A DNA stretch of 63,138 nt, counting the filler, from Sphacelaria rigidula (lineage: Eukaryota), in assembly GCA_964200075.2 (NCBI GenBank). It is 9 parts of 9 records of this genome, joined end to end, with 100 filler letters (N's around TTAATTAATTAA, not from the genome) between each part and the next. Parts side by side here need not be neighbours in the genome. Positions count along the whole stretch, not along the records: positions 21,084 to 28,010 come from CAXNAA020017367.1; 8 more parts are not named here. One strand, given 5' to 3'. Each line of letters begins with the position of its first letter. Position 1 is the first letter of the stretch. Shown piece by piece: positions 7,257 through 63,138 of the stretch. The notes beneath the pieces were generated by a model. That model did no database searches. It saw only the letters and a program-made list of their open reading frames with translations, and had not been told where the DNA came from. The translations under genes were made by a program, and so were the position numbers.

Positions 7257-7550
7257 TGAGCTAGCTCATCTGTGGGCTATAGCTCACTTGTGGCCAAACA
7301 TGTGTAGATGAGCTACGGGTACACCCTGTAGCTCACCCAGGACATTCATGCGTAGGCCAAGAAGCTCTCATAGCTCACTAAGACCAAACATGCGTAGCTC
7401 ACGTAGCTTTCATAGCTCATCCAGGGCGAACATGCGCTGATGTCCTACGTCCCGTAGCGCACCCACAGCAAGCACGCGTACCTCACGTAGCTCTCATGGC
7501 TCAGTAGGGAGCTATGCCCAAAAAGAGCTGCTCGAGGTACAGGGAGCTGA
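7257..7550 (+). repeat. AGCT-rich subterminal array arm starting at palindrome TGAGCTAGCTCA
   Basis: Repeated TAGCTCA(C/T)CCAGGG..AACATGCG units; reverse complement of 11760-12374. Confidence 0.75.
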
Positions 7551-7658
7551 TCTATCCGACCGGTGCACTAATACTGAAGCGTTGAGCGCAGGGCTTCGTT
7601 TCGGTACAACATCAGACTGGCAGTCCCGGGGGAAATGTGCAACCATGTTCTGTGCTAC

Positions 7659-8619
7659 AATTTTTCACACCCTGTACAGCTACAATAGTTTGTAGTTCTT
7701 CCTCCAACAACTAACTGTTTAGAATCGTGTGCAACGAGTTGTTTCCAAACAAATAACGGTTCATAATCGTGTGCAACTAGTAGTTTTTCACTCTCGATCT
7801 ATTTATTTTATTTTGGTTTCTTCTGCTAGCCTGTGACCACGGAAGNNNNNNNNNNATGCCCAGTACCAATGTACCGCGCAGATATCGGAACGGCTTTTAA
7901 TGTGAAGACAACAACAACAACAACAACAACTAGTTGTTTCGAAACAACTACCTGGTCAGAATCGTGTGCAACTAGTTGTTTCCAAACAACTGACTGTCCA
8001 GTATCGTGCGCAACAAGTTGTTTCCAATCAACTATCTGTTCAGAATCGTGTGCAACTAGTTGTTTCCAATCAACTACCAGGTAGTTTGGTCGACAAACAA
8101 CTAACTTTGTTTGGTAGTTTAAAAAAATGAAAACGCTGTACAGTAGTGGTGTTAGCTCGTATCTGTACAGGACAGGGAGTAGGCCAGAAAGATCAGCACA
8201 ACCTAATTCGGGATAGAGGAAAATACATGGGTATGCGGTGTGATGCAAAGCATAGGCATATATCATTCGAGGCGCGAGGATGACACGTCTCAGAGGCACC
8301 CTCGTGTGTGCTTGTGTGTGAATGCGTGAGGTGCTTACATATTCATGCGTCAGCTCGATTTCAGGCAACGGTCTAATTGAAATTGTTCCACGATGTGGAC
8401 AACTACCCGGGCCACCCAACAAGTACTTGTGCAAAATCTTGTGCAACTAGTTGTTTCCAAACAACTGCTACTCTTTCAAAATCGTGTATAATGGGTTGTT
8501 TCCAAACAACTGATCTATCAGAATCGTGCGCAACTAGTTGTTTGGAAACACCGGTGGTTGGTCGACGAACGGCCAACTAAGTTAGTTGGTAGTCATAGTT
8601 GTACAGGGTGTGAAATATT
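7659..8619. mobile_element. Non-autonomous TIR element(s) with 42-bp hairpin minisatellite
   Basis: 24-bp inverted ends AATTTTTCACACCCTGTACAGCTA (7659) and TAGTTGTACAGGGTGTGAAATATT (8596); internal units ATCGTGTGCAACTAGTTGTTTCCAAACAACT at 7961, 8003, 8045, 8481, 8523; 10-N gap at 7846-7855. Confidence 0.65.
8147..8421. mobile_element. Possible solo LTR
   Basis: ~270-bp non-array segment interrupting the 42-bp array, TG...CCAACA ends, imperfect flanks AGTAG/AGTAC; no second copy to confirm. Confidence 0.3.
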
Positions 8620-9039
8620 TGAACAACGTGCAGTACAGACAATACAGTACTGCCTGTACTACCTGCATGCAGAAAGGAGTAGATGCGAGTTCGCGCACAG
8701 TAGTTCATCAGCTGGACTATAAACGTTTTGAATAATGTACACGCAGTACAGTACTGACTACACTTCCTGCAAACCGTACTGTAGTGCAGCGATCATCGGA
8801 CGAAAAATACTGACACCGCGGTGCATGCGGCGGTGCAAAGGAGATGATGAGCGATTGGAAACCACGGCCGCTGGCCAGAGGCCATTTTTGCCCGTGTTTC
8901 ACTCGTGCCACGGATGTTCCAAAAACATCCACTGGCGAATAACACAGAACACAGATGTTTGAAATGCCCATACACCACGTGCGTGAGCGCCGGAACCAAA
9001 ACAATTCCTCTCGCGTGGCGCTCAGCCTTGAGGAACCAT

Positions 9040-9272
9040 GCGCAGCTCTCACGTGTGTAGCTCATCCAGGGCGAATGAGCTATATCCGGTAGCCCACCCA
9101 GGGCAAATATGCGCTGATGAGCCTCGTCCGATAGCTCACCCAGGGCAATCATGCATAGCTCATTTAACTCTCATATCTCACCCACGGAACACATGCGTAG
9201 CTCACGTAGCTGTCATAGCTCAGTAGGGAGCGATGCCAAAAAAGAAATATTCATAGCTCGAGCGACAGGAAG
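9040..9272 (+). repeat. Second AGCT-array arm
   Basis: Same units and same exit sequence (GCTCAGTAGGGAGC.ATGCC.AAAAAGA) as 7257-7550. Confidence 0.75.
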
Positions 9273-9577
9273 CGGATCCGTCCGACGTGTCGATCTTTTC
9301 GAGGACACAACATTCGACAAGCGCGGACTCGGCTGCCTTGGTGTTTGAGGAAATCGAGGTTGAACCATCTATGTCCCGGAGATGAATTACATCGCCATCG
9401 ATGATACTGTTTGGGGTCGAATAAACTAAGGGACCTCAGATGAGGTCAACACTTCTGCTGTGAAACACACATACATGTATTGTCCCTACACTACTCATGA
9501 CCTATTATTTTGTTGGTAGGTTGCGCAGCGCCAGTGCGGTACATCAGTCTCTCGCAGCGTCATGATATCGGTCTGGG

Positions 9578-9738
9578 GGGGGAGGGGGGGAGCGGGGTGG
9601 CGTATCCATTCGTTGCTTGCCTTAGTCGTTCGACCACTGACCACGCATCCCTCTCAAGACGGAGCACCGTCCCTACTCCTAAAAGACACACTTCCAACAT
9701 TTGGGTGCTCATCACGTTTCTTCCATACACTGCTCACG
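9578..9738 (-). mobile_element. 5'-truncated non-LTR retrotransposon 3' end with C-rich tail
   Basis: Family 3' end shared with 22379, 26114, 45334, 48198 and 63049; TSD ATCGGTC(T/C)GGG at 9567-9577 and 9739-9749. Confidence 0.85.
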
Positions 9739-9925
9739 ATCGGTCCGGGTGGGGGGTGAAGGGCGGGGAGGAGCGGGATATACACCGAAGAGGGACAATT
9801 TCCGACCTCATCCGCCGCATACCAGCTGATCCACTTTCCCAAAATGTCGTCAGCACTTTCCATTTTGCGACGGAACTCTTACGGCCATTATTATTTTTAT
9901 TATACGTATTTATTATCATCATCAT

Positions 9926-9944
9926 TAGTAGTAGTCGTAGTCGT

Positions 9945-9976
<32 letters not shown>

Positions 9977-9999
9977 TAGTAGTAGTAGCAGTAGTAGTA
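9926..9999. repeat. (TAG)n/(TAGTCG)n microsatellite
   Basis: Directly visible. Confidence 0.95.
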
Positions 10000-10002
10000 A
10001 TA

Positions 10003-10570
10003 CGGCAGGCAAACCCGATCATAGCTAGCTTTCGTTGCTCTACCGTACTTACTCTCAACCGAAGTTCGCAACAGGTATGAAAGCCAAAGAGTTTGATTTT
10101 TCTCAACTACATCCACCCAATATCAACGACTCTCAAGACCCGAGGGAAGGTGGCCACTCCGTGTCCGGTTAAACATTCGAAGATACCGTCGAACAGCAAT
10201 ACCAATCTTTTCTAGGATTGGCATCAGGCAGTCCGTGGAGAACGGAACAGAAATCGACAAGTTACCGTTCGTATTAGAAAACAATGCGCATGAAACACTT
10301 TGCAGGTTAGAAAACACGTTTTTTCGTGGAGAGGAAACTCCCCGTATCCCCATTAATGTTGTATGCGCCTGTAAGAACTTTTCCGTCGTTCATTGATACC
10401 TGGCGGGGGGACAGGGAAGCCGTCCTCCCTCAGGTCTTGAGAGTCGTTTAAATTGGGTGGATGTAGTTGAGAAAAATCAAACTGTTTAGCTGTCATACCT
10501 GTTGCGAAATTCGGTCGGGTGTAAGTACGGTAGAGCAAAAAAAGCTAGCTATGATCGGGTTTGCCTGCCG
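10003..10570. mobile_element. Foldback/MITE with ~150-bp TIRs (CGGCAGGCAAACCCGATCATAGCTAGC...)
   Basis: 10003-10150 is the reverse complement of ~10420-10570; flanks TA/TG; homologue at 41548-42062. Confidence 0.85.
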
Positions 10571-11369
10571 TGCTACCGACAGCGTTGCGTGAAAGTCACA
10601 AGACCTTTGCTGTCGGCGGTTGATGGCGTCACCACGCTAGCAACAGTTAGGTCACCACCATAGGTATCTATTTTCACTCCTCATGTCAAGAAGATCTCTA
10701 CAAGTGTTTCATCTCTCATACACCCCCCTCAACTGGCGTGTGGCACGCTGTTGTGGTCGGGCACCCAGAGGGTCAGATGTGGGTAAAATCAACGATGAAT
10801 AACACCCCCCAAGTTCAACTTGAATCTATTTGTTATGGCCGCACCACCGCCCTTGCTGGCATTTGTGTGACAGAGAACAGTAGTGGCAGTAATGGGAATA
10901 TTGCCTTGTTTTTCAACATGTTTTTCAGCGCACAGAGGCGCATCCTGTCCAAAAGAAGAGGCAGAGAGAAATCGATCTTCGCATTCGTGAGCTCGACAGG
11001 CAATTGTAAGAAGAGAGGAAATGTCTCCGCAGCTCGATGCTCTGGCACATGAAAAATTGGGCGCACGCTGGTGACATCGATGATGCCAGTCTCTCGAGAT
11101 TTTGGTAATCGCCGAGCGGGGACACACAAAGGACACGGGCGAGGAGCTTCCTCTCTGTCGTTGCTTCTCTCTCTGGTGATATCGTCATCGACACGCGTGT
11201 ACACCACATTCATGAGGTGCACCTAGCCACAGCTGCTCAACTGTTGTGGATATTTGGGGGGGAAGATGGCTTCGCTCGGTCGTAAGTGTTTCGTGTCCCC
11301 CCTGCAAAAAAGAAATGCCATTTGAACCTCATTTTTGAGATGAACCCCATTTTCCAGGATCCATTGTTA
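10003..11369 (-). mobile_element. Dispersed non-coding composite repeat, copy 1 (terminus TAACARTGGATCC)
   Basis: Colinear reverse complement of 40333-42062; terminal fragment also at 35137-35211. Confidence 0.85.
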
Positions 11370-11495
11370 CATGTTTGCCCTGGATGGGCTATGAGAGCTA
11401 GGTGAGCTGCGAATAATTGCTCTGGATGAGCTATGAGAGCTACGGGAGCTACGTTTGATTGCACCGGTTGAGCTAAAGAGCTACGGGAGCTACGC
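11370..11495 (-). repeat. AGCT-array fragment abutting the composite repeat
   Basis: CATGTTTGCCCTGGATGGGCTATGAGAGCTA units. Confidence 0.7.
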
Positions 11496-11759
11496 CAATC
11501 TTGGAGTTGTTCCTGTTCCGATGCTCATGCCCGTTGATATTGTACGCACGTGACAACGGCTATATGTGCACACACCTGTTCCGTTTCGTGTAGCGATGGA
11601 TTTGCTTTTTGTAAACGTCAACAGTCAACATGGCTGCATCAGAAGTCATCTGCATCATAGCCACCACATACACACACAACCATAGACGCACACACAAACA
11701 CACACACACACAATTTGCCCTGCATGGCGACCGGGGGGGGCAGCAGCTCTACCGGCGCT

Positions 11760-12374
11760 GCAGTAGCTCATCCGCATATGTTTTCCCGGAGTGAGCTACA
11801 AGAGCTAGGTGAGGTACGCATGTTTGCCTTGGGTGAGCTACCAAACGTAGCTTATCCGCGCATGTTTACTCTGGGTGAGCTGTGAGAGCTACATGAGCTG
11901 CATATGTTTGCCCTGGGTGAGCTATCAACCCGTAGCCCGTCAGCTCAGATTCGCCCTGAGTGAGCTATGGGATCTGTATGAGTAACGCACATTTGCGATA
12001 GCTGAGCTACCAACCCGTAGCTCATCAGCTCAGATTCGTCCTGGGTGAGCTATGGGATCTGTATGAGCCACGCATGTTTGCGATAGGTGAGCTACCAACC
12101 CGTAGCTCATCAGCTCAGATTCGTCCTGGGTGAGCTATGAGAGCTGCATGAGCTACGCAAGTTTGCCCTGGGTGAGCTACCAACCCGAAGCCCATCAGCT
12201 CATATTCGCCCTGGGTGAGCTATGAGAGCTGCATGAGCTACGCATGTTTGTCCTGGGTGAGCTGCCAACTCGTAACTCATTAGCGCACGTTTACCTTGTG
12301 TTGAGCTATCGGACGTAGCTCACATGCACATGTTTTACTACAAGTGAGCTACCGCCCGCAGGTGAGCTAGCTCA
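11760..12374 (-). repeat. AGCT-rich tandem array with 85-bp higher-order period (43+42-bp subunits), ending in TGAGCTAGCTCA
   Basis: GGGTGAGCTATG subunit starts at 12043, 12128 and 12213; alternates with GGTGAGCTACCAACCCGTAGCTCATCAGCTCAGATTCG. Confidence 0.9.
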
Positions 12375-14699
12375 TGAGCTGTCCTACGTGAGGAAGGTTC
12401 TCAGCTGAATTTTCAGCGTCGCAGCGAGATCAACGGGCGGAAAAAATTGGCACAGAAATGACTGGGAAAGTCAAACGCTTGTGATGTGCCGCTCGCTAAT
12501 GGAAGGCGTGTCCGACGTTTCAACGCATGCCCCCCGGCACGTATGGACACTCCAGCTAGAAGAATGGCACCTTTGGAGGCGGTCATCATCCGACGCCGTA
12601 CAAGATACTGTACGGTGCTCCAAAGATCTTGGTGCGGTTGTGGGCGAGCAGCAACCGTCTGCATGATGGTAATTTTGTTGCATTTGTTTTCATGAACAGT
12701 CAGTCTGAACTGACCCATTCGTCGAAGAACAGAAAATGCTGCTTCAGTGGGTAGCCGATGAACACAGAATACAACACAATCAATCCGTTTCTCGAGAATC
12801 ATAGGCCACGCTATCGGGTGGTGTATCAGGCGCGGTGCATGTCACGATCACGGTATACAGACCCTTGGCATGGGGTGAAATTTACCGTTCATCGTCAACA
12901 GTCGCCGCAGTTTGTCGTTCCGCGCCGAGAAAAATTCCTGGCCCCAAACCGCGTGAATCAGGATGAGTAGGTAAACGCTGGATTCGACCGCTTCCTTTTC
13001 TCGCTGGCCTATTTCTCTTTTGAAAAACACGCGTTCCGCGTCCGTGATTCAAGTAGGGGGGCGGAGCGCTGCTTACACCCTCGACGATATGACATGTTCT
13101 AATGCCATATCGATACTTCATGTCGATAAATGTGAAGGCGTGGCCCTCATGATACACATTACGTGTGCTATCGTTGGGGTTATTGCAGCGAATATGTATA
13201 TTCTCATGTCATCATCGTGGGTCCAATATTTGCAAGGACGAGGTCGCCGAGGAACACAGCAGAAGTGGTGCAACACTGAAGAGTTCAGCAATTTTGGCGT
13301 GCAGCAGCATTTTGCCACGGTTGAGGGAAGGCGACGTACGTCTTATTCACGTCATTAATCTTTTACGAGTGCGTGTGCCGATATCCTTCACGTACGAGGC
13401 CACATGTGCTGCTCGCCCGATCGCGGCCACTACTGTACTGTGCTGTGCTGTGCTGTGCTAAATAGGCAGTTGTTACGCTATGAGGCTTATCCAAGAATAG
13501 TTGCGGCCCTTGGTGTGTGCGCGACAACTGCCTTTCTATGTAGGAGGTGGTGTCTCTCCATACATACAAAAACTGCTCGGAATCTCGTTCAGAAGCCCGG
13601 CCGTTCAGCGTTCAACTAAGAGTCCGGGCGTGGAGGGTTTCCCACTCGTCTGTTGAAAAAGTTTCAACCTTGACATTAGCTTCAGCCCATCTAGTCATCG
13701 CTGATGGTTAATTGCGCCCGAGCCGTTTGTCCTTCACGTGGTTGATGTGTGTAGACGTTGAACTGTCTAGTATGCAGGCTCTACCTCCCTGCGCGAGACA
13801 CGTTCTACGATAGCCCCCCCCCAAAAAATAATGAATGTTTTCGGGAGGCAAAATCTTCACGTAAGTCGAAATGAGGAAAGCCGAGCACAACGAGCAGCTG
13901 GGAATTCCCACGCTTTGGTTCGTTCTCTCCAATGTTGCCAATATGAGGCGCTTCATNNNNNNNNNNNNNNNNNNNNNNNNNNNNNNNNNNNNNNNNNNNN
14001 TTAATTAATTAANNNNNNNNNNNNNNNNNNNNNNNNNNNNNNNNNNNNNNNNNNNNACTGACAGCGCTTGCACGACCGTGCCTCCCGAAGCGAGTACCTC
14101 TCCAGGCGATACCAAGAGAGGTACCGCGCAAAATGACATCATCCAGAGTGTACCCAATACGGATCGATGCTCGTTTGCCGGAGTAGGAGCCACTCAGCAG
14201 GTCATGATGTGGAAGTGAGCGCATCTGCGCGTCTATATATGCATCCACTGACGTCTCACACAGTGTGGGCCGAGGGGACTCCGTTTTGAGGGCATATCGA
14301 TGGCATTTCCCACAATCCGTATTCACTTCGTGCGTCTTGCGCACCACGTAAAAACGTGTCGCCGATCCGGGAATTTGCTGTCTGTGTTGTGGTCTACCTC
14401 TCTGCCAATTTTCAGGCTTGTTCGTTCTGACACGGCGGAGAAATCCACAAGCAAAGTAACGCTTGACTTGTACTGAAAAAACAGTACTAAACCGTCGAAA
14501 GATACACGAGGTGCGTACTCGTATGCTTCTCCCTGTCAACCCTGTCACAAGGACAAACCTGTCAACCCTGTCACAAGGATATCCCTGCGCCAGTACTCGA
14601 CAGGTGTATGCTATGGGTTGCAGAACCACAGGGATTTTGCCACCCCGCTCTGATGGTTTTACACAGTTGACCACAGTGGGGACGTTTACCCCCGTATGT

Positions 14700-20983: not shown

Positions 20984-21087
20984 NNNNNNNNNNNNNNNNN
21001 NNNNNNNNNNNNNNNNNNNNNNNNNNNTTAATTAATTAANNNNNNNNNNNNNNNNNNNNNNNNNNNNNNNNNNNNNNNNNNNNCGGA

Positions 21088-21815
21088 TGACAGCCTACAA
21101 TGAGTTGCTTTATTTTCTGGTATCGCCACTTCCGGAGACAGCCACGGCTTATACACTGTCTCATGGATGTCTCACCATAAGACCGGGGGGGGGGGGGCAG
21201 TTTCCAGACAAATTGCAAATCCCCACAGGAAAGGATCGGGTTTTGTGAGAAGCAAGAATCGTGTCAGTGAGGGCGGGTGTGACAACTGGGGGACAAATAT
21301 GAAGGATGGCACGGGGATAGCGCGTGAAGTTCCAAGGCAGCTTTAGCACACAGCACTTTGAAGAGTAATATGAAGGGAAAGACGACGCCCTGAGAGCGAC
21401 TGATTGTACGACACTAGATCCATGAAACTAATTAAAAAAACTGCTCATAAATCATCCGGTCACAGGCGCGATACACGCAGGCCGGCGGGTCTCCGCACCT
21501 TTATGATATCAGACAAGACGTGTGAAAAAACATCGAATGACACGAGGAGAGGAAACACTGACCGACGGCCTGGCGGCAGACATGCCTACAAAACATGCAG
21601 ACGGTTCAGAAATCATTCTCCCGACAGTCTCCGTTACGTAAAAATAAAACAAAACAAATGTCGGGTGTTTCCAGTACGTGCGTCGGAGCCCATTGGCCAC
21701 TCTCCCACCAAAACATAAGGAGACACCCATGAGCCAGTGTGTAACCCGTGGCTGTCTCTGGCAGTCAGCGGTGATGCCAGAAAATGAAGCAAACTCATTC
21801 GAGAGGCTGTCACTC
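21088..21815. mobile_element. MITE with ~100-bp diverged TIRs
   Basis: 21088-21190 is inverted at ~21700-21815 (TGACAGCCT...ATGAGTT.GC.TTATTTTCTGG...AGACAGCCACGG). Confidence 0.7.
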
Positions 21816-21896
21816 ATATGCAAGATAAGCAATATATTTCGGGCCGAACAATCTTCGCAGGATGCGGCTTAACCTTTATGGGTCTCGTCGAACACA

Positions 21897-22035
21897 TCAC
21901 GGCGTTTCGCGCTTGGAAATTGAGTGCGAGCCTGGTCCGGCGAAACCTCGGCGTGCCCCGTCCCGGCTTCGTAGGGATGCGAGTTTTCAAATGGTCTTTG
22001 TGACTACGGCATGCAAGATCACGAGTACACCTTCA
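21897..22035 (+). mobile_element. Non-LTR retrotransposon 3' end, sister family 2 (diverged)
   Basis: CACGGCGTTTCGCGCTTGG...AATGGTCTTTGTGACTACGGCATGCAAGATCACGAGTAC matches the reverse complement of 56011-56085. Confidence 0.65.
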
Positions 22036-22378
22036 CCAAGAGCTCAGGCGCACACGGAGTAGAGCCCTCTTTCGGCACCGCCAGAACGTCCTACCACACA
22101 TAACACTACACTAGCGGACCGGACCGGACCGGACGCATCTAACCCCGGACAGACGACAACGCTTGTGTGGGCTAGCTCGCAAAATCTTGATCTTACCAAC
22201 AGACAATAGTCCGTACGTTGGTGCTTTGCTTGTGCAAACGACACAAAAAAACAGGTATCGCAGGGGGAAAAAAATGTGTGCCACATGAAAAATAAAAATA
22301 AACGTCACGTCTCGCTGGCTCGTCTATCACCTACATGAAATCGGACTTTAACGCACTTCTGAGTATTGTCCCTTGGAG

Positions 22379-23335
22379 GGGGGGGGGGCGTACTCATTTG
22401 TTGCTTGCCTTAGTCGTTTGACCATTGACCACGCATCCCTTTCGAGACGGAGCACCGTTTCCACTCCTAATAAAGACCCCCTCAACCATTCCGGCGTTCA
22501 TTACGTTTCTTCCGTACATTATACAAGAACCGTTTACATATCTTATCCCCGTCCTGTTTCGCCATCTGTGGCCATCATTTATCTCCTAGTATAGTCGTTT
22601 TCTCGCTACTGTGTAATGCATCAAACGATTTCATGATATCTTCGTTTACGTCCCGCATTTCCCCCTCTAGCGCGTCCCATCCCTCCTTGTATAGTTCACA
22701 TTCTGCCACTATATGACTTCCGCTCTCTCTTCCTTCACCACAGGGGTAGGTCTGTCCATCTACTTCCTCCTTTCGACGACTGGTAAATCTCTTCCTTCTT
22801 TCTTGCAGGTCCAGATGCCCCGCCCGAAATCGCAGTTTTCTTTTTTTTGCCGCGTCCATTCGGCCATGCCAATACGTTTTCATCCCGATCCCTTCTTTCA
22901 ACCCCCCGTATACCTTCAGGTGTTGTTCCTCGTCAACTTTGCGTTTGAGCGCTCCTTTTTCCCTTATTTCTGTCATGTCTTTTACTTTTGTCTTGTACTC
23001 CGCGCCTTCACCTGTGGACAGTATTTCGTCTTACCTCCCTCCTATCTCCTTCCATACTTTCTCGGCTTCCTTTATCCCACCTTATTCCAGTATATGCCAT
23101 TTCGTACTTTTCTTCCATACAGCCCTATCAACCATAGCTGACAATCTCTTTCTCCGCATATTCTTTACGCTACATTGCCACCTCGATTTCTTCGTGTCTC
23201 TGTTCGTTTCAAGTGAGTACATTCCCAACTCTGCTCTGCGTGCTGTATTGCTCGTCGTTTTCGAGCATTCAAGTATCTTCTTAGCTGCTTCCACCTGTAC
23301 TGTTTCCAACTTCTTCGCTAATTTCACGTTCCCCA
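22379..23335 (-). mobile_element. 5'-truncated non-LTR retrotransposon (ORF2 C-terminus, CCHC-like motif, C-rich tail)
   Basis: KLETVQVEAAKKIL.CSKTTSNT.RRAELG...LRFRAGHLDL...PCG...SHIVAECELY; perfect 10-bp TSD TCCCTTGGAG at 22369-22378 and 23336-23345. Confidence 0.9.
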
Positions 23336-24108
23336 TCCCTTGGAGTGGAGGGGGTGGCCGTTTGAACTTGCTCAGATTTGTACCGCGTTGACCTTCACTT
23401 GTCGTGTCTTTGGCGCGTAGCATGCGATATCTTACATAACACCTACACGGCACGTTGCAATGACGGATGTATTGCTTGATCGATTGTCGCACTTCAACTG
23501 ACCCCCGAGGAGTCATGATCCAGCCGTGGTCATTATCCACGAGATAGACGTACCCGAGACAAAGCAAAACTGAAATACTCGCTGAAGAAAAAAAAAAACA
23601 ACATAAGAAAGTAAAATATATATATATATATTGTATATATATAAATGGCTGGCTAGCCTCTGCCACATGGCTTCGGTGGAGAGGGTTTCGTGCATGAGCC
23701 ACACTTATATCCAGTATTATAACTTAATCGCACAACCACGGCGCCCCGATGGTATGAATTAAAATGATGCAACTGAATACCATTTGGTAGGTCGGCAAAA
23801 AGCGGTTCGACCCCGCAGACGCAGTTGTTTGTCTCCTCTCAAACGTGTCTCACAAGTCTCATTTCCGTCCTTGATAACGTGAGGACGTCAGCAGCGATAG
23901 TCGGGCGCGATGCGGGAGTACTAATGGTCATGATTCAATCCTGATATCAAATTGCAAGGCGTATCCCGGGAAAGAGATGGGTTGACCGCATAGAACCAGG
24001 GACCCGTCCCTACTTGAGGGAGGAATTGAATTTGTGACGGGAAGAAAAAAAAAGAGAGAGAATAGGTGATGCACCTATATAGAGATCGATTGTACAGATC
24101 ATGGGAAC

Positions 24109-24462
24109 TGTGTTGTGTTGTTGTGTGTTGTCATCCCGTCTATTCTGGACGCCAGTCTACACCTTTCGGTATTTGTGGGCGCATCAGCCGGGGTCACGCA
24201 GGAGGAAGGCCAACACAGGATTTTTCTTCTTTGAGTACTCTAGCTTCCTTCTGCGGTGCTTGCCTTGTTTTTTATCGCGACAGGGGTTCAGCAGTCCTTC
24301 TCCTTCGTCGACCGTGAAGTCGAACTTCGTGTACCCACGACATGCTCGCTCTCCACTGTTGGGCATGGTATGAGAAAAACTTCCAGATCGCTCCGAGATT
24401 CGAACCCACGACCCCACCGTCAGAGGCTTTTGAGGCTACCAACTGAGCCACCGGGGCGACCG
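24109..24462 (-). mobile_element. Full-length tRNA-derived SINE (~350 bp) with (CAACA)n-like tail
   Basis: A box TGGCTCAGTTGG, B box GGTTCGAATC, body shared with 29742-30057, tail shared with 42163-42235. Confidence 0.9.
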
Positions 24463-24465
24463 TCC

Positions 24466-24540
24466 AACTAGATTTATAAAATGGGAACTAGATACACGAA
24501 ATGGAAACTAGATATACAAAAATGGGAACTGGATATACAA
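24466..24540. repeat. ~21-bp minisatellite AAATGGGAACTAGATATAC
   Basis: 3-4 tandem units; ATGGGAACT also on the other side of the SINE. Confidence 0.75.
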
Positions 24541-24853
24541 TGTGGCAACAAGATAAGGTATTTTCCTTGCTGTTGCACCGGTTTTGTAAGTCTTATAGCG
24601 TCTTGTCTGTTTCTCGTCACACTTCTAATGTAATTCCTGCCCTTCCTCGGGACAAGTCCACACTCTCAGGGAGTCAATCTATCTCTCCTGCAGGGGGCAG
24701 AAAAAGGATAATGGGTGATGACTCATGTCAAGCAAGTACGCCTTGAGACTCAGCAGCACAATGTGTAGAACAGGTTCCGCCGCTCCACCCGTCGATGCAC
24801 ACACGAGTTGGTTAGCATGCGGTGTACTACTATGATGATGGCAAGATACGTAC

Positions 24854-25010
24854 CCCTGTAGCGACTCCAGTGGAGGTGACCAAGACCATCTTTCCGACAG
24901 CCGCGGGGGACACGCCGACCTGCTGCAGGGCCTTCGTTGCAACGCGGGTAGCCAGAGGCAGGGCGCACTCGCTGAACCGTTTGTATCTTTCCACCGTGCT
25001 CACTTTGAAG
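24854..25010 (-). CDS. Internal exon of a type III polyketide synthase (chalcone-synthase-like)
   Basis: Acceptor CAG (25011-13), donor GTACG (24853); reads xFKVSTVERYKRFSECALPLATRVATKALQQVGVSPAAVGKMVLVTSTGVATG, aligning with the type III PKS segment R..KF...AVPL...VA..A....G.....I.KLV.VSSTG (comparison from memory of Ectocarpus PKS1); absent from the ORF track. Confidence 0.72.
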
Positions 25011-26113
25011 CTGCGTCACGTCATAGGGGGGGGGGAGGAGACAGAGATGAAGAGAGAATACATATGTATACACACAGATATATGAATGAAGACAGTACCT
25101 CTATCACGTGACCACGGCTGGATCATGACTACCTGGGGGGTCAGCTAAAGTGCGACAACCAACAGAAGAAAAACTCAAACAAGTACCAGGGTAGACGCTT
25201 CTCCTGAAACACGCATACACACGCGCAGCAATATACAATCCTCCGCATGTTTCCTGGAATGTTTTTCGTGGAACGAGTTTCGTAACTCCGGGTCATCATT
25301 CATTTCCGTCACCGGAGTATCGTCATACTCCAAGGATGGTGCAGAACTGTTGTCTGGCACCTCCTCGTCACTTCTCCTCTGCACCCGAGTCTACGTCCAC
25401 ATACATATTTTCTGGAGGATGACACACACAGCTTTGTTCCAGTGGCGCACCCTCCGTGACCCACGGGTTCACAGCCGCCACGCCTCGAGGTGGTAGTTCA
25501 AGAAGGACGGTGAAAGCGTTCCTCACCAAGGCATGACAGGCCAGGAGCTATCGTGCAGGGGATCATCTGTACTCATGAGGCTGCGAGTCGATGTACACTT
25601 GCGAAGCAGAGCCGAGGCATGCAACATTCTAAGTACGTAGAACTGTGTATTGGGACCGCTACAAGTTGGTCAACGTCAGCATACCTCCCTAGTATCGCCA
25701 TTGACTATCAATGACAACCAACCTACTCATATATTGCTACGCATGCTGTAGTTATAATTCACTGAACGTTCACATGCTACGCGTATTTTTATTTTCCAAC
25801 GTGAGTGTAGCATGTTGATTTGTCATCATCCAATGGTCTTCTGGTGCTGGGAGCTAGCTACTCCCCACAGTAGCAGCAGCGTGCCGCGAACTGAAGACCA
25901 GGAGAATCTTGCTTGTCATAGCATAGACTGCAAACTTGTACATCACTAAAGGGGGCTCGGCGATCAACATAAAGGCACTTGTTCGTGTCTTTTTGTTTTT
26001 CGCACAATCAATGATGTTCTATGACACGCATAAATAATTGTCCTTTTTTTTTTAAAGAGGTGGAGCCAAAACGCGCATCTTGTCCGCCTCCGATGAGCCT
26101 CCCCCTCCAGCCG

Positions 26114-26295
26114 GGTGGAAGGGGGGGGAGGGGGCAGGGGATACTCATTTGTTGCTTGCCTCAGTTATTTGACCACTGACCCCGCACCCCTTTCAAGACG
26201 GAGCACTGTTCCTACTCCTGATAGATACATCTAAAACAGTTGGGCACTCATTACATTTTCCCCGTACATTACATAGCAAATTTTCATGTACTATA
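26114..26295 (-). mobile_element. Non-LTR retrotransposon 3' end with C-rich tail
   Basis: G-run + ATACTCATTTGTTGCTTGCC family signature; GGAGGGGG on the far side. Confidence 0.85.
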
Positions 26296-27912
26296 TCTCG
26301 AGGAGGGGGACGTGTCCACGGCCTCAAGGGATAGATCGATCTCTTGTATTCCCTGGAACCCGACTCGCATTGTTTTATATTATGAATCTTTGGATCAGCA
26401 CTCTCGCAACGCGTCGAATTTAGCCGAACAAAAAAACTTTATTTTGCTACTACTCTCGCTGTCTAAGGATTAACGACGGAAACAAGTCAGCAAAATTTCT
26501 CGGGGGGAACAAAAAAAACAAACTCTTCCCGAATGTTGATCCGCATTCCCCTGCTCCAAACAGTTGGACCACTGGGTCGCGTCGGCAGAAGTGCACCTCG
26601 AAAATGCACTGGTAAAATGATCATCCCAACCTTCAATACAGATTGCATTGATGAAAACCAACAACAAATACACAATCAACCAAGGGTCGGACGAACTAAC
26701 GGTACGTCTGGAAATTACTTGATTCTAGTGCGATTGATTCGTACCGTACGAATCGATCCTTCGACTTTGTTTCAGGGTTGCGTGCCGGGTACGCGCAGCC
26801 CAGGCACGTGGAATAGCGCAAAAATCGCGTGGAGACCTTCTTGACCAGCGGTCAAATTTTTCTCTCTTTCGAGCAATCAGGCCTGAAAAATTGTGGATTT
26901 GGTCATTCGAATCGGCGATGATTCGTCCGGATCGTGCAACGAGGTTAATGTGGCAATGTGTTCGCGGGCGATGAGTGGCATCAAACCACACCCTGGATAA
27001 CGGTCATAAATTACATTGTCAAAAAATGTACTGCGTACAACATTGAATCTACTGTTTATTGCAATGGACGTAACAGTCGATACTGTACGCAGTACACTTT
27101 TGGGCAATGTAATTAATTGATCAGGTTGTGCATAAGATACTAATATACGGAGTACATATACATATGTACACGTATACATGCGTCGCACAAAATTTAGAGA
27201 ACCAGAATTTAAAAAAAAATGAAGAAAAAAAAGATCATGATGTTTGTTTTTGCCTACAACGAACAAGAATGCAGTTTTGGTGACCATATTTGCCTATTTC
27301 ACTCCGGGTGTGTCTTGAGATAAAACCATCGATGGTCGTATCTCATAAAATTATGCTTCAATGAATTCCATCCAAAGGCAAGCACATCGTGCCAAGCTGA
27401 TCAGCAGCAGCTACCCTCCACCTATACCTTGTTCGGCCGGGAGAAATAGATCTCAGAGATGAGTGTGTGGTCGTATTTCAGGCGTGCCCTTCGCCTTAGC
27501 ATGGGCCGCGCACGATTGCGACGTCGATGTTCTCGTGTGAGCAAACGTCTGTTGGAAACGGTTCAAAAGACTTTTCGTTTGTTTGTTTTTTATGGGGGGG
27601 AGTAGCGTGAAGTGAGGAAAATTGTTGGGTGAAAATCGTAAATAATTGTTTTGAAGAACGCTTTTCATCATCCCGATCAAGACACTGAAAAGCTATCAAC
27701 TCACACTTCAACCACCATCGTCAACATGATGAAAATCGTATATATGTATATATATATTATATTTTCAAGCACACATTTTATCATCCCGAGCGAGACACAC
27801 CGAAAATCTACCGACTCACACCACCACTACCCCCACACTACCACTACCGTAGTCAATATCATCAATCGTCATTATCACCATCATCATCCTCATCATCACC
27901 ACGATCATCATC

Positions 27913-28010
27913 AGAGTCATCCTACGATAGGGGAGGGGGTATTTTGGGCCATTTGTTCGAAATTTCGAGTCAGATCGTCGTTGAAAGCAGCAACGGTTGT
28001 TCAAACAATC
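27913..28010 (+). mobile_element. Left end of Sola2-like MITE (cut by contig end)
   Basis: GAGTCATCCTACGATAGGGGAGGGGGTATTTTGGGCC matches the TIR of 41051-41299. Confidence 0.7.
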
Positions 28011-34929: not shown

Positions 34930-34969
34930 CAGGCAGACAACATCAATGAGTCCAAGCAGAAAAAAGAAG

Positions 34970-35018
34970 GAGGGGGGGGGCGTACTCATGATCATGCATG
35001 CCATAGTCATAAGACCAT
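34970..35018 (-). mobile_element. Very short non-LTR 3' end, family 2
   Basis: G-run + CGTACTCATGATCATGCATGCCATAGTCATAAGACCAT, then GAGGGGG. Confidence 0.7.
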
Positions 35019-40332: not shown

Positions 40333-42062
40333 TAACGGTGGATCCTAGCAAATGAGGTTCATCTATAAAATGAGGTTGAAGTGGCATTCTCTTTTGCAGG
40401 GAAGACGCGAAACACTTACGACCAAGCGAAGCCATCTTCCCCCCCATGTCCGCAGCAGTTAAGCAGCTGTGGTTAGCTGCACCTAGCGAATGCGGTGTAC
40501 ACGCGTGTCGATGACGATAGCACCAGAGAGAGAAGCAACGACCGAGAGGAAGCTCTTCGCCCGTGTCCTTTTTGTGTCCTCGCTCGGCGATTTCTAAAGT
40601 CTCGAGAGACTGACATCATCGATGTTACCAGCATGTCCATGTGCTGAAACATCGGGCTGCGGAGATATTTTTATCTCGTCTGACAATTGCCTGTCGAGCT
40701 CACGAATGCGAAGATCGATTTCTCTCTGCCTCTCCTTTCGGGCAGGACGCGCCTCTGTGTGCCGAAAAACATGTCGTTGAGAGAGTAGGGCAATGTTCCC
40801 GTCATTGCTACTACTGTTCTCTGTCACACACATGCCAGCAAGGGCGGTGCTGCGGCAATAAGAGATGTATCCAATTTGAACTTAGAGGGTGTTATTCATC
40901 GTTGATTTTCGCCGACCTTTCCCTACCCGGGTGCGCGACGAGAACACCCTGCCACACGCCAGTTGAGGGGGGTGTATGAGAGATCAAACACTTGTAGAGA
41001 CTTTTTTTGACATGCGGAGTGAAAAAAATACGTATAGTGATGACCTAACTGAGTCATGTTACGATAGGGGTGGGGTGTTCGATTCCACGAACAAATTGGC
41101 TCATAGGTGCGTCAGATGAACCCACACACTCGCGATGCGCTTGTATTTGGATAAAAGCGATGTCAAACAGTATAAATGAGCGTTATAAATCGGAAGAAAA
41201 CGCGTTCGAACTACCGTTGCTGCTATCAACGACGATTGCAAGTAGAACTTCGTGGAAGAAAGCGGCCCAAAATACCCCCCCCCTATCGTAGCATGACTCA
41301 ACTGTTGCTAGTGTGACGCATCGGAGTCCGTCCATGCTGCAACCTGAAGCACAAGCTGGTCGCGTGAATACCTAGCTCGGTACACTACGGGTAGCTTTCC
41401 AGAATTATCCCGATGTCAGGAGGTCATGCATTACAAGCTGAACGAGAGTGCTCTACCATCATACCACTTGTCGTCGCATATGAGACCCACGCCATCAACC
41501 GCCGATAGCAAAGGTCTTGTGGCTTTCACGCAACGCTGTCGGTCGTACGGCAGGCAAACCCGATCATAGCTAGCTACGGTACTTCCTCCCGACCGGAGTT
41601 CGCACCGGGTATGAAACCTAAAAGGTTGATTTTTCTAAACCTCATCCACCAACTTCAAACGACTCCCAAGACCTGAGGGAGGACGGCTTCCCTGCCCCCC
41701 CGCCAGAAAATAATAAAGGTCAGCAGAGTTTTTTCGGCCGCATAGAACACTAATGGGGGTACGGAAAGTTTCTTCTCCATGAAAATGCGTGTTTTTCAAC
41801 CTGCCAAGTGTTTCGTGCGCATTGTTTTCTAATACGAACGATAACTTGTCGATTATTGTTCCGTTCTCTACGCACTGGCTGATGCCAATCCCAGAAACGT
41901 TTGGAATTGCTGTTCGACGATATATTTGCGTGTTTAGGCGGACCCAAGGCGGCCACCTTCCCTCAGGTCTTGAGAGTCGTTTGAATTGGGTGGATGAGGT
42001 TTAGAAAAATCAACCTTTTAGCTTTCATACCCGTTGCGAACTTCGGTCGGGAGGAAGTACCG
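40333..42062 (+). mobile_element. Dispersed composite repeat, copy 2 (with nested Sola2-like MITE and terminal foldback)
   Basis: Colinear with the reverse complement of 10003-11369 plus two extra segments (41051-41299, ~41320-41488). Confidence 0.85.
41051..41299. mobile_element. Sola2-like MITE
   Basis: TIR GAGTCATG(T/C)TACGATAGGGG; GAG...CTC ends; 4-bp TSD AACT; empty site TGACCTAACTGTTGCTAG in copy 1 (minus strand, ~10637-10654). Confidence 0.85.
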
Positions 42063-45333: not shown

Positions 45334-46320
45334 GGGGGGGGGGGCGTCCTCATTTGTTACTTGCCTTAGTCGTTTGACCACTGACCACGCATCTCTTCAG
45401 AGACGGAGCACCGTTACTACTCCTTATAGAGACACCTTCAACATTCCGGCCCTCATTACGTTTCTTCCACGCATTACACAAAAACCTTTTACATATCTTA
45501 TCCCCGTCCTATTTCGCCGTCTGTGGCCACCATCTATTTCCTACTATAGCTATCATTTTCTTCCTACTGTCTAATGCATCATACAATTTCATGCCACCTT
45601 CAATCACGCCCTGCATTTCCCCCTCCAGCACGTCCCGTTCCTCTTTGTATAGCTCACATTCTGCCGCTATATTAATTCTGCTCTCTTTTGCTTTGCCACA
45701 GAGGCAGCTCTGTCCATCTACTTCCTCCTCCTTTCGACTACTGGTATATCTCTTTTTTCTTTCTGGCAGGTCCAGGTCCCCCACCCGAAATCGCACTTTC
45801 ATGCTTTTAGTAGCGTCCACTGGGCCATGCAAATATGCTTTCATTCCGATCCCCTCTCTCAACAACCCGTCTCCAGGTGTTCTCCCTCGTCTACTTTGCG
45901 CCTGAGCGCTGCTTTTCCCCTTATTTCGATCATATATCTTACTTTTGCCTTGTACCCCGCGTCTTCATCTATGGACAGAATTTGGCTTGGATTCCTCCCA
46001 TCTCCTTCCACACTTTCTCGACTTCTTTATCCCATCTTATAGCACGCCCTCTCGTACTTTTCTTCCATACAGCCCCATCAACTATAGCTGGCAATCTTTC
46101 TCTCTGCATGTTCTTTACGCTATATTGCCATCGCAATTTTCTCATGTCTCTGTTTCAAGTGAGTACATTCCCAACTCTGCGCTCAAAATGTATTACTCGT
46201 CGTTTTCGAGCATCCGAGTATGTTCTTAGCTGCTGCCATCTGTATTGTTTCCAGCCTCTCCACCAACTTCCCGTTTCTCTCCCATACTTTCCCTGTATAT
46301 TCCACCTTTGGTACGATCAC
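45334..46320 (-). mobile_element. 5'-truncated non-LTR retrotransposon with C-rich tail
   Basis: RLETIQMAAAKNILGCSKTTSN; RFRVGDLDLPER...CLCGKAKESRINIAAECELY; G-run at the 3' end. Confidence 0.9.
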
Positions 46321-46506
46321 GTTGAAAGGGGACCGCTGCCGGCCGAAGGTCGGCAAGGTACCCTGTATAGAATATACAATGGAACGTTTTGCTGACCAGG
46401 CCCACAAAAAATAGGGGCACAAAACATGACCATGGAAGTTTGAAGTGTTGAAGCCTGTTGGCCTGTCTGGTGACGCCGTAGAGTTAACAGGCGTTGGGCT
46501 CCCAAT

Positions 46507-47959: not shown

Positions 47960-48197
47960 CGTATCCCGTACGGCGCCAGTATCCAGTACAGGATCACCCG
48001 TACCCGTATGCCGGGCACGGCCAGTATCCACCCGTACGAGATGGCGAAGATACCAAATGTCGCCAGTATCCGCCAGTGCGAGGCGGCGAAATATCCAGTA
48101 TCACCAGCCAGTATGAGGTGGGGAATTATCGAGTATCGCCAGTATCCGTCAGCATGAGGCCGCAAAATACCCAATATCGCCAGTATTCGCCAGTACG
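47960..48197 (+). repeat. GCCAGTATC-rich array, cut by a LINE insertion
   Basis: About 10 copies of (CG)CCAGTA(TC). Confidence 0.7.
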
Positions 48198-49047
48198 AGG
48201 AGGGGGGGGGAGGGAGGGAGCTTACTCATTGGTTGCTTGCCTCAGTCGTTTGACCATTGATCACGACCCCCTTTTGAGACGGAGCACCGCTCCTACTCCT
48301 GATGAAGGCACCGTCAACATCCCATTGTTCATTATGTTACTTCCATACATTACACAAGAACCTTTCACATATCGTATCCCCGTCCTGTTTCGCCGTCTCT
48401 GGCCACCATCTTTCTCCCAGTATAGCCATCGTTTTGTCCCTACTGTCTAACGCATCAAACGACTTCAAGCCATCTTCGTTTACGTCCCGCATTTCCCCCT
48501 CCAGCACGTCCCATTCCTCCTTGTATAGTTCACATTCTGCCACCAGATGACTTTTGCTCTCTATTGCTTTGCCACAGGGGCAACTCTGTGCACCTACTCC
48601 CTCCTCCTTCCGACGACTGGTATCTTCTTTCTAGCAGGTCCGCGTCCCCCACCCGGAATCGCAGTTGCAGATTTTTTGCCGCGTCCAGTCGGCCATGCAA
48701 ATATGATTTCACCCCAACCGCCTCTCTCAACCACCTGTATATCTCCAAGTGTTTTTCCTCGTCTACTTCGCGCTTGAGCGCTTCTTTTTCCCTTATTTTG
48801 ACCATACGTCGTATAATTTACTTATGCCTTGTACCCCGCGACTTCATCTATGGACAGTATTTCGTCTTGGTTTCCTCCCATCTTCTTCCAAATCTTCTCG
48901 ACTTCTCCATTCCACTTTACTCCAGCCTTCCCTTTCGCACTTTTCTTTCACACAGCCCCATCAACTATAGCAGTCAAACTCTTTCTCGGCATGTTCTTAA
49001 GCTATAGTGCCGTCGCCATTTCCTCATGTCTGCGTGTTTCGAGTGAC
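48198..49047 (-). mobile_element. 5'-truncated non-LTR retrotransposon with C-rich tail
   Basis: LRFRVGDADLLER; VAECELYKEEWDVLEGEMR; G-rich run at the 3' end. Confidence 0.9.
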
Positions 49048-63047: not shown

Positions 63048-63048
63048 G

Positions 63049-63138
63049 GGGGGGGGGGGAGGGGGGGGCAGGGGAGGGAAGTACCCCTATGTTGCTTGCC
63101 TTGTTCGTTTGACCATTGACCCCGTACCCCTTCGATAC
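63049..63138 (-). mobile_element. Non-LTR retrotransposon 3' end with C-rich tail (cut by window end)
   Basis: G-run + ...TGTTGCTTGCCTTGTTCGTTTGACCATTGACC. Confidence 0.8.

Follow-up and report, generated by a model that had tools for sequence, protein, structure and literature searches.

The window that we analysed is a stretch of 63,138 nucleotides from Sphacelaria rigidula (assembly GCA_964200075.2), made up of nine pieces of about 6.93 kb each, with N spacers between them. It contains seven copies of a LINE family, spread over five pieces. The original prediction listed six copies, in four pieces, that share one C-tailed 3' end. We recovered all six and found another (c7, blastn E = 3.6e-06) that was absent from that list. 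When we searched the window for the 25-mer GACTAAGGCAAGCAACAAATGAGTA, allowing up to 3 mismatches, there were 5 matches, all on the minus strand; shuffled sequences give an expectation of 0.00. The sixth copy (c6) is more diverged and is truncated by the end of the window, with its element part at 63071-63138. All seven copies are 3' fragments of 50-990 nt with a common 3' end and no LTRs:

9578..9738, minus strand: copy c1, the element's last ~135 nt and a 23-nt C-rich tail
22379..23335, minus strand: copy c2, the 3' part of a 5'-truncated LINE, with the ORF's last ~310 codons (decayed, 5 stops), GTACG, and a C10 tail
26113..26284, minus strand: copy c3, the 3' end (~145 nt) and an interrupted C-rich tail of ~24 nt, without a target-site duplication (TSD)
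34972..35018, minus strand: copy c7 (matched over 50 nt, at 34969-35018), the 3' end (~38 nt), GTACG, and C9
45334..46326, minus strand: copy c4, the last ~330 codons, GTCCG, and C11, with a doubtful TSD
48196..49031, minus strand: copy c5, the last ~260 codons and an interrupted C-rich tail of 22 nt
63048..63138, minus strand: copy c6, a 31-nt C-rich tail and the element's last ~57 nt, cut by the window end

The C10 tail of c2 corresponds to the plus-strand G's at 22379-22388, and the 5' end of c5 lies close to the end of its piece.

Outside the window, we found three more copies of the same family, on unrelated metagenome or MAG contigs (L001, L002, and L089). Two of these have full-length ORFs (1426 codons in L002 and 1382 codons in L089), although their contigs do not delimit the 5' end of either element. 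The element has a single ORF of about 1360 amino acids, which encodes an N-terminal domain of ~90 amino acids, an AP-endonuclease, a reverse transcriptase (RT), and a C-terminal CxCx8Hx4C domain, in that order. Protein P0003 matches RVT_1 (E = 9.8e-31), and its endonuclease (residues 170-414) matches Exo_endo_phos (E = 3.4e-12) and Exo_endo_phos_2 (E = 3.3e-07). These matches bear out the earlier identification of the copies as a LINE, and judging by its domains the family is an APE-type non-LTR retrotransposon. The solved structures that are closest to the RT are those of L1 ORF2p (E = 6.6e-21) and the R2 RT. The copies in the window, which are 43-86% identical to P0003, were predicted to be 5'-truncated, and all of them are: they retain at most the last ~330 codons of the 1360-amino-acid ORF. 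The endonuclease region is missing from these truncated copies and is present in the full-length L002 and L089.

A CCHC-like motif near the C terminus had also been proposed. It is real: 20 relatives all keep the same residues at its four positions (C1243, C1245, H1254, and C1259), and the match to Pfam's zf-RVT is below the cut-off. At the other end of the protein, the model of the N-terminal domain (pLDDT 78.7) has the order beta-alpha-beta-beta-alpha-beta. Its best match in the PDB is an RRM (E = 0.031, TM 0.53), with nothing at E ≤ 0.001, and the modelled domain would be RRM-like at best. We found no sign of a separate ORF1: in L089, the element strand has no ATG ORF of at least 50 amino acids in the ~1.1 kb that precede the main ORF.

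An 18-mer search of genome contigs gave 13 matches, of which 12 were chance matches in bacterial DNA and one was a real copy (L089); no second copy was found in the MAG that carries L089. Among viral contigs, a DNA-pattern search had 0 matches to the family, and of 52 pattern matches checked by protein profile, 0 were relatives. Of the named homologues, the closest is a protein from Ectocarpus sp. CCAP 1310/34, with 66% identity over the RT region.

The 3' end ...AAATGAGTA(CG), with a C-rich tract after it, is common to the seven copies in the window and the three external copies. The tract begins 1-5 nt past ...GTA in 10/10 copies (7/7 in the window and 3/3 elsewhere). It is 10-31 nt long, and its longest run of pure C is 8-13 nt. 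None of the 10 copies has poly(A) after the 3' end, or any run of A longer than 3 nt, so the claim of a C-rich tail that is never poly(A) holds throughout. The sequences beyond the tails are unrelated among the copies. The C tract is thus supported as a constant feature of this LINE family.

Contigs from four sequencing runs that match the 3' end also run on into plus-strand poly-G (876, 424, 753, and 153 records). In these read-derived contigs, the consensus length of the run is about 20 G. Some read contigs contain head-to-tail units, each made of ~66 nt and a C run, and many have the 3' unit with poly-G on either side. Poly-G at the ends of reads is a known artefact, and the loose contig ends are poly-G on one strand only, as would be expected if assembly errors or two-colour sequencing chemistry had produced the G's. 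We consider this extremely improbable as an explanation for the tails. The tracts differ in length and in their interruptions at the 7 loci in the window, they lie inside TSDs, and they are also present on the element's C strand in three unrelated assemblies (as C8, C10, and C13). Furthermore, contig joints pass from the G run into CGTACTCAT.

We searched for TSDs around five copies (c1-c5) and used 300 shuffles to assess significance. Two copies have firm TSDs, of 11 bp (c1) and 10 bp (c2), and in both cases G-rich DNA lies past the inferred nick of the first strand:

9567..9577: tail-side TSD of c1, ATCGGTCTGGG (score reached by 0/300 shuffles)
9739..9749: 5'-side TSD of c1, ATCGGTCCGGG
9750..9777, plus strand: target DNA past the c1 nick, rich in G, TGGGGGGTGAAGGGCGGGGAGGAGCGGG (as many as 15 G's in a 20-nt stretch; P(≥15) = 0.003 in the background)
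22369..22378: tail-side TSD of c2, TCCCTTGGAG (score reached by 1/300 shuffles)
23336..23345: 5'-side TSD of c2, TCCCTTGGAG
23346..23357, plus strand: target DNA past the c2 nick, rich in G, TGGAGGGGGTGG (as many as 11 G's in a 20-nt stretch; P(≥11) = 0.029 in the background)

The consensus of the TSD of c1 is ATCGGTC[T/C]GGG, and the distal TSD is followed by TGGGGGGTGAAGGGCGGGG at c1 and by TGGAGGGGGTGG at c2. This confirms the two TSDs of the original prediction, including that they run into G's and that G-rich DNA continues beyond the distal copy. The search gave no TSD at c3 and none at c5. For c4, a candidate TSD with a 9/10 match lies 100 nt past the last protein homology, and since 7% of shuffles reach its score, we did not count it.

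The strand that is nicked would read TTGGAG^TGGAGGGGG at c2 and CYGGG^TGGGGGG at c1. The inferred primers end in ...GGAG and ...YGGG. Because this strand is G-rich around the nick at both sites, G's at the 3' end of the primer could pair with C's. The bulk of the G run is downstream of the nick, not inside the primer. Beyond the 5' junction, the maximum number of G's per 20 nt is 15 for c1, 11 for c2, 11 for c3, and 13 for c7, where the G-rich DNA GAGAGGGGGAAGGGTGGG lies directly past the 5' end. For c3 and c7, we had already seen the G-rich DNA when we set the 5' junctions, so these two are not independent tests of the target. In the 3' flank of L089, past the tail, the element strand is rich in G (GTTGGGGGTGGGG), and the primer would end in ...CAAC, without G microhomology. 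A preference for G-rich target DNA may hold for the family and is based on two firm and two soft sites. The proposal that the endonuclease nicks G-rich strands fits the nicks at c1 and c2. The preference would be caused by the endonuclease rather than by annealing or by selection.

G-rich targets raise the issue of whether the tail comes from the target. Some LINEs are specific for microsatellites: Kibi inserts in (TC)n, Koshi in (TTC)n, Mino in (AC)n, and Waldo in (ACAY)n. If this family were similarly specific for (C)n/(G)n tracts, then the C run would be flanking target DNA. Like those LINEs, the family has simple repeats on its flanks, with G-rich DNA past the 5' junctions of c1, c2, c3, and c7, and the many contigs with the 3' unit between two poly-G runs would also fit. 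In addition, the tail of L002 is followed by TCGTAGGATG, and the same motif elsewhere in the window also follows a C run, so some tails may sit in pre-existing C runs. At c1 and c2, however, the C run lies within the TSDs, between the element and the tail-side TSD, and when the empty sites are rebuilt, the insertion point lacks a C run. At those sites, the tail must have arrived with the insertion. (We found no empty-site allele across c2 or c3 among the contig joints listed for the four sequencing runs.) The 3' flanks are also unrelated to each other. We asked if the G-rich flanks of c1 and c2 might be the tails of older copies, and their alignments to the element's 3' ends were within the range of shuffles, so they are not detectable as older copies. 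Overall, a tail that is derived from the target seems very unlikely.

The sequence just before the tail is unusually well conserved. The stop codon (TGA) lies inside AAATGAGTA, and the C run begins 5 nt past the stop in L001, L002, and L089. L089 and L002, which belong to different subfamilies, are identical at 96/100 of their last 100 nt, as compared to 78% over 3.7 kb and 67-88% in other 75-nt windows. In c2, this block is at:

22389..22490, minus strand: conserved 3' block, the ORF's last ~100 nt and the 5-nt 3' UTR

The conservation could partly be at the level of the protein, or could be due to recombination between subfamilies. The predicted fold of the block is not significant (z = -0.75), and among 8 near-identical sequences, 0/26 of the predicted pairs covary.

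If the family were a strict mirror of L1, then its protein would recognise the poly(C) tail alone and would mobilise any C-tailed RNA, and the 3' sequence upstream of the tail would have no role. The constancy of the homopolymer tail fits this. So does the finding that G/C runs in the window also border other repeats, and those repeats could be passengers that were mobilised in trans: the window has 30 G/C runs of at least 7 nt, versus 6.4 in shuffles, and just 9 of them belong to the LINE family. But a tail-only protein would not account for 96% identity in the last 100 nt of subfamilies whose overall identity is 78%, or for a junction, ...GTA(CG) before the C's, that is kept in 10/10 copies. 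We detected no sequence in common between the LINE end and the other repeats at G/C runs, which are candidate retrocopies only. (We also considered the high-copy repeat at 21084-21184, by a G13 run, as a relative of the LINE end, but the G run alone aligns.) We think that recognition of the tail alone is distinctly unlikely.

To place the family among its relatives, we built an RT tree with 90 rows, which are metagenome and genome relatives without reference RTE or RTEX sequences. The family falls within a clade of 27 rows (SH-aLRT 100), and an adjacent clade of 12 rows ends in (TC)n, 6-10 nt past the stop. More broadly, of 65 relatives with a closed ORF, 36 have a simple repeat of at least 12 nt downstream, and just 1 of these 36 repeats is poly(A). 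Searches of Pfam, the PDB, and the ESM Atlas did not give a clade assignment. A very short 3' UTR that ends in a short simple repeat is a trait of the RTE group (RTE and RTE-X), and with its 5-nt 3' UTR, the poly(C) family shares this trait.

These relatives bear on another explanation, in which the C run is made anew at each insertion. The template would end at or near ...GAGUACG, and the RT or another enzyme would extend the nicked DNA end with untemplated G's, either as the template is engaged or beforehand. The R2 RT is known to add untemplated nucleotides and to jump between templates, and end-to-end jumps of this kind, bridged by added G's, would be consistent with the head-to-tail units (~66 nt and a C run). 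Untemplated tailing might also explain why the tails vary in length and purity between copies (from C8 to interrupted tracts of 31 nt) and why even the 50-nt copy c7 has one. On the other hand, the full-length and parent-like L002 and L089 already have a C run straight after GTACG, and this run would be part of any read-through transcript. Related clades have (TC)n at the same place, which simple homopolymer tailing cannot produce. Untemplated tailing is unlikely, in our view.

Instead, we favor the explanation that this is a poly(C)-tailed LINE of the "stringent" type that primes on G-rich nicked DNA, with a probability of roughly 0.6. The RNA of the element would include the C run, copied from the tail of the parent copy. 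In the manner of stringent LINEs, the element's protein would recognise the RNA by its strongly conserved 3'-terminal ~100 nt. The endonuclease would nick a G-rich strand, and the 3'-terminal G's would pair with the C run and start reverse transcription. Re-pairing within the homopolymer could alter the length of the tract. Reverse transcription would usually abort early, leaving 5'-truncated copies with TSDs of 10-11 bp.

Other LINEs with short-repeat tails offer a precedent. As described in PMC3747384, the I element ends in (TAA)n, plant RTE has a (TTG)n tail, and UnaL2 (of the L2 clade), whose tail is (TGTAA)n, shows template slippage and has its 3' end recognised stringently. The same source describes poly(T)-tailed SINEs whose partner LINE is still not known. 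Like the stringent LINEs, the poly(C) family has a short-repeat tail instead of poly(A), a conserved 3' block, 5'-truncated copies, and TSDs. The 3' block is presumably recognised by the element's protein, and the tail is likely to be where the primer pairs and slips. There are also differences. The repeat unit is a single C, hence the homopolymer tail; with a 3' UTR of just 5 nt, the block that is recognised would fall within the ORF; and no stem-loop is supported. Because of the 5-nt 3' UTR, the 96%-conserved block of 100 nt, and the neighbouring clade with (TC)n, we read the family as a stringent-type LINE whose simple-repeat tail has the unit C, and as only partly a mirror of L1.

L1 has a poly(A) tail and nicks at TTTT/AA (PMC5381506, PMC3747384), and the original prediction described this family as its G/C mirror. 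Part of the analogy stands. Both kinds of elements have an APE endonuclease, an RT, a C-terminal Cys/His motif, and a homopolymer tail. In both, the nicked strand is rich in the base that is complementary to the tail, and the TSD of the poly(C) family begins like the tail (CCC... or CTCC...). The analogy is off in kind in other respects. In contrast to L1, the poly(C) family has no poly(A), no ORF1, a single ORF, a 5-nt 3' UTR, and a strongly conserved 3' block, and its G run is mainly downstream of the nick, while the T run of L1 is in the primer. The similarity of its RT to L1 ORF2p is at a general level only. Where poly-C is mentioned in PMC5381506, it refers to internal tracts in the 3' UTR, and the L1 elements in question still end in poly(A).

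The original prediction knew of no described poly(C)-tailed LINE, and our search of the literature likewise found none (Repbase, Dfam, and the Ectocarpus TE supplement were outside that search). LINE families have been catalogued for Ectocarpus (RTE-X, RTE, CRE, and 'Unknown'; PMC12477816) and for Saccharina (RTEX, RTE, Jockey, L1, and CRE; PMC4421812), and main-text passages on these families make no mention of 3' tails. Like the brown-algal RTE-X families described there, the poly(C) family is very abundant. Curated libraries of brown-algal TEs probably already contain the family, which limits the claim of novelty. It is an unusual version of a known copying mechanism and not a new kind of element.

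A broader view, which we offer tentatively because it might well be wrong, is that this lineage has its whole integration cycle on G:C homopolymers. The endonuclease would seek G-rich strands, possibly ones that form G-quadruplexes; the poly(C) end of the template would be primed by G:C pairing; and each insertion would plant a new G/C run as a later target. If so, the family would seed its own landing sites, as well as the tandem arrays of the 3' unit and C run in the read contigs, and it would partly account for the excess of G/C homopolymers, about five-fold, in the genome. There is a practical side as well: in brown-algal genomes, short-read assembly and repeat annotation both break down at G/C homopolymers.

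The tails of LINEs reveal how reverse transcription starts, and poly(A) and various short repeats were already known. A poly(C) tail, together with a 5-nt 3' UTR and G-rich targets, would give a clean natural system for asking how the identity of the tail, the microhomology of the primer, and the choice of site by the endonuclease are coupled. It also opens the questions of whether a recognition signal can lie within coding sequence and of how transposons make and reuse homopolymer tracts.

The window (63,138 bases) is made up of nine ~6.93-kb pieces, and copies on different pieces can fairly be described as lying in unrelated contigs because the pieces are separate and are joined only by spacers (N44-TTAATTAATTAA-N44). 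Allowing up to 3 mismatches, the 25-mer from the original prediction matches the window five times, always on the minus strand, while shuffled sequences are expected to give 0.00 matches. A sixth copy is more diverged and runs off the end of the window. All six of the predicted LINE copies were thus borne out, and we found a seventh, of only 50 nt (blastn, E = 3.6e-06). We set the extents of the copies by comparison with full-length relatives:

LINE copies in the window, from the match to full-length relatives
9588-9729, minus strand, LINE copy
22373-23339, minus strand, LINE copy
26122-26284, minus strand, LINE copy
34969-35018, minus strand, LINE copy
45334-46326, minus strand, LINE copy
48208-49031, minus strand, LINE copy
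63071-63132, minus strand, LINE copy

As predicted, the copies are 5'-truncated: all of them are 3' fragments that include at most the last ~330 codons. With independent pieces in random orientations, the shared orientation (7/7 on the minus strand) would have a probability of 0.016. It may reflect the choice or orientation of the pieces, or an orientation bias within genes.

Read along the element strand, all copies in the window end in AAATGAGTA, mostly followed by CG, and then by a C-rich tract. The tract begins 1-5 nt past the GTA and is 10-31 nt long; the longest pure runs are 8-13 C, and runs of A never exceed 3 nt. A C-rich tail that is never poly(A), which was the central claim, also holds for three external copies, which end in GTACG followed by C8, C10, or C13 (L001 and L002, which are marine-metagenome contigs, and L089, which is an algal contig inside a bacterial MAG). 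L089 was the one remaining match from an 18-mer search of genome contigs, as the other 12 of the 13 matches were chance matches in bacterial DNA. This 5.3-kb contig is a full-length copy of the same eukaryotic LINE, with 88% protein identity to one of its relatives (P0003). No second copy of the LINE was found in that MAG, and the presence of L089 in it is bin contamination. In four sequencing runs, 876, 424, 753, and 153 contigs match the element's 3' end (these are contigs, not copy counts), with a consensus of ~20 further G's past the window's own G run. Loose poly-G ends of contigs could be artefacts of poly-G reads, but this caveat does not touch the tails that lie in the window, inside target-site duplications (TSDs), or in three other assemblies, which are independent of it.

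Is the C run part of the insertion? Both of the predicted TSDs stood up against shuffled sequences. ATCGGTC[T/C]GGG (9567-9577 and 9739-9749) brackets the first copy and its tail exactly, with a score that was reached by 0 of 300 shuffles, and TCCCTTGGAG (22369-22378 and 23336-23345) does the same for the second copy (1 of 300). In both cases, the C run sits between the element and the tail-side copy of the TSD, so the rebuilt empty sites lack the C run. The tail is borne by the element, and the original interpretation as a whole is partly supported. We found no TSD for the copies at 26122-26284 and 48208-49031. For the copy at 45334-46326, the one candidate is a 9-of-10 match that lies 100 nt past the last protein homology, and the site is doubtful. 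Among the joints listed for contigs of the four runs on the piece at 21,084-28,010, none joins across an empty site.

For the two copies with firm TSDs, the priming strand is the plus strand of the window, and the nicks are at ATCGGTCYGGG^TGGGGGGTGAAGGGCGGGG (first copy) and TCCCTTGGAG^TGGAGGGGGTGG (second copy). The primers would therefore end in G-rich tetranucleotides, which could pair with the C run, and a G-rich tract lies directly downstream of each nick and remains 5' of the new copy. Just past the 5' junction, the maximum number of G's per 20 nt is 15 and 11 for these two copies, 11 for the copy at 26122-26284, 13 for the copy at 34969-35018, and 8 at the doubtful site (background P(≥11) = 0.029, P(≥15) = 0.003). 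Only the first two are clean tests of targeting, because the junctions at 26122-26284 and 34969-35018 were set from the ends of homology after the sequence had been seen. The G-rich flanks are not detectable as older copies of the element. Both firm targets fit the proposal that the LINE targets G runs. L089 runs counter to simple microhomology: on the element strand, the flank 3' of it is rich in G, which would give a primer with ...CAAC at its end. The RNA end, slippage, and the specificity of the endonuclease are what we infer.

The element has a single ORF. With stops read as X, the copy at 22373-23339 gives a 293-residue protein, whose relatives include proteins of 1328-1360 amino acids with RVT_1 (E = 9.8e-31), Exo_endo_phos (E = 3.4e-12), and Exo_endo_phos_2 (E = 3.3e-07); among named relatives, the closest come from Ectocarpus sp. 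CCAP 1310/34. In L089 and L002, the ORFs are intact, at 1382 and 1426 codons. No ATG ORF of at least 50 amino acids precedes the ORF of L089 on the element strand, which implies that the LINE has one ORF only. A domain of ~90 amino acids (VFGV...GWRC motif; L089:3878-4162, minus strand, and L002:937-1221) is conserved at the N terminus and is predicted to fold as beta-alpha-beta-beta-alpha-beta (pLDDT 78.7). Its top match in the PDB is an RRM, at only E = 0.031, and the weak RRM-like matches include L1 ORF1p (ranks 30 and 48). This domain may be a built-in RNA-binding module in place of ORF1. The CCHC-like motif at the C terminus is real: CxCx8Hx4C is invariant across 20 relatives, and the match of this region to Pfam's zf-RVT is under its cut-off. 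The stop codon is the TGA within AAATGAGTA, so the 3' UTR is just 5 nt.

The 3' end is unusually conserved. L089 and L002 are 78% identical across 3.7 kb (67-88% per 75-nt window) and match at 96 of the last 100 nt. This is the signature that would be expected of a cis-recognition element, here within coding sequence. The block's fold energy is ordinary (z = -0.75), and covariation was seen for 0 of 26 predicted pairs among 8 near-identical sequences.

The 3' end also occurs in head-to-tail units. At 22380-22454, 216-244 contigs in three of the four runs align as far as 22454, beyond which they run on as poly-G. For contigs that leave at 22454, the listed joints return 70-76 nt to 22378-22383, each in 8-18 contigs of two of the runs (X1 and X4). 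The units consist of the LINE's last ~66 nt plus a C run, and the break point falls within an invariant hairpin-like GGAGTA...TGCTCC. They may have arisen as a satellite from the 3' end, by template jumps, or by insertion of one tail into another. The window contains no array of this kind.

Homopolymers are common in the window more broadly. It has 30 G/C runs of at least 7 nt (mean 6.4 and maximum 15 in 200 shuffles), just 9 of which are LINE tails, and 42 A/T runs of at least 7 nt (6.1 in shuffles). A very high-copy repeat at 21084-21197 (summed contig depth over one million) ends at a G13 run (21185-21197) and has no similarity to the LINE's end apart from the G run. Tandem arrays of GAGCTA-rich 42- and 85-nt units lie at 7300-12300 (families D3-D5, D8, and D13, with those at 7700-8550, where there are more 42-nt repeats). 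A second short repeat has an internal homopolymer, GGCCCAAAATA(C)7-10 CTATCGTAGGATGACTC, with a G run replacing the C run in two instances. Its core 11-mer has 6 matches in the window with at most 1 mismatch (0.54 expected):

Second short repeat in the window, core 11-mer
13803-13813, minus strand, second short repeat
27920-27930, minus strand, second short repeat
41283-41293, strand not marked, second short repeat
49231-49241, strand not marked, second short repeat
49278-49288, strand not marked, second short repeat

The sixth match (45539-45549, minus strand, 1 mismatch) is within the LINE copy at 45334-46326. Also, the C tail of L002 directly adjoins TCGTAGGATG, which is similar to this repeat.

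As the original prediction suspected, a full-text literature search, whose reach did not extend to Repbase, Dfam, or supplements, found no C-tailed LINE. The poly-C in one LINE paper lies in tracts inside the 3' UTR of L1 elements, whose own ends are still poly(A). There is a curated Ectocarpus library, and the C-tailed family is probably already catalogued, though not described in the text that was searched. The most abundant Ectocarpus LINEs belong to RTE-X, RTE, and CRE families, in an account of these LINEs that makes no mention of tails (PMC12477816).

We compared a profile from 20 relatives to metagenome contigs. This gave 512 related stretches in 599 pattern matches, and we kept 80 loci. 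With L089, there are 81 loci; the longest ORF leaves the contig in 16, and 65 remain. A simple repeat of at least 12 nt lies within 700 nt downstream for 36 of the 65, and it is poly(A) in one of the 36. (Offsets from ORF to repeat are approximate because the longest ORF may not be the whole gene.) In a quick RT tree (90 rows of 97 candidates; IQ-TREE, LG+G4, SH-aLRT support only), which left out seven loci that cover under 300 of the 371 query residues (L003, L028, L029, L036, L038, L041, and L075), the C-tailed family and an Ectocarpus protein fall within a 27-row clade (support 100). This clade joins (support 92) an adjoining 12-row clade (support 98), in which those members whose end can be seen (L012, L014, L015, and L019) have (TC)n 6-10 nt past the stop. 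L013 ends in (TC)n too, yet branches apart. Across the metagenome relatives L012-L015, L019, and L035, (TC)n or (CT)n begins 0-10 nt past the stop codon, and several of these have AATGG (Asn-Gly) ~30 nt upstream of the stop, as does the C-tailed family.

LINEs have been divided into a "stringent" group, which needs its own 3' end, and an L1-like group, which needs only poly(A); repeat tails include (TAA)n in the I element, (TTG)n in plant RTE, and (TGTAA)n in UnaL2, where the tail is thought to permit template slippage, while for poly(T)-tailed SINEs the partner LINE is not known (PMC3747384). The C-tailed family matches the stringent LINEs in each feature that gave a clear result, with a homopolymer as its repeat. 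The proposed analogy to a mirror image of L1 holds for the homopolymer tail and for a nicked strand that is rich in the complementary base, but the family lacks poly(A) and ORF1, which are L1's defining features. Overall, the element appears to be a stringent LINE with a simple-repeat tail and not a relaxed mirror image of L1. Given the (TC)n shortly after the stop in the neighbouring clade, the very short 3' UTR and the pyrimidine repeat extend beyond the C-tailed family, and its special feature is the repeat unit of a single C.
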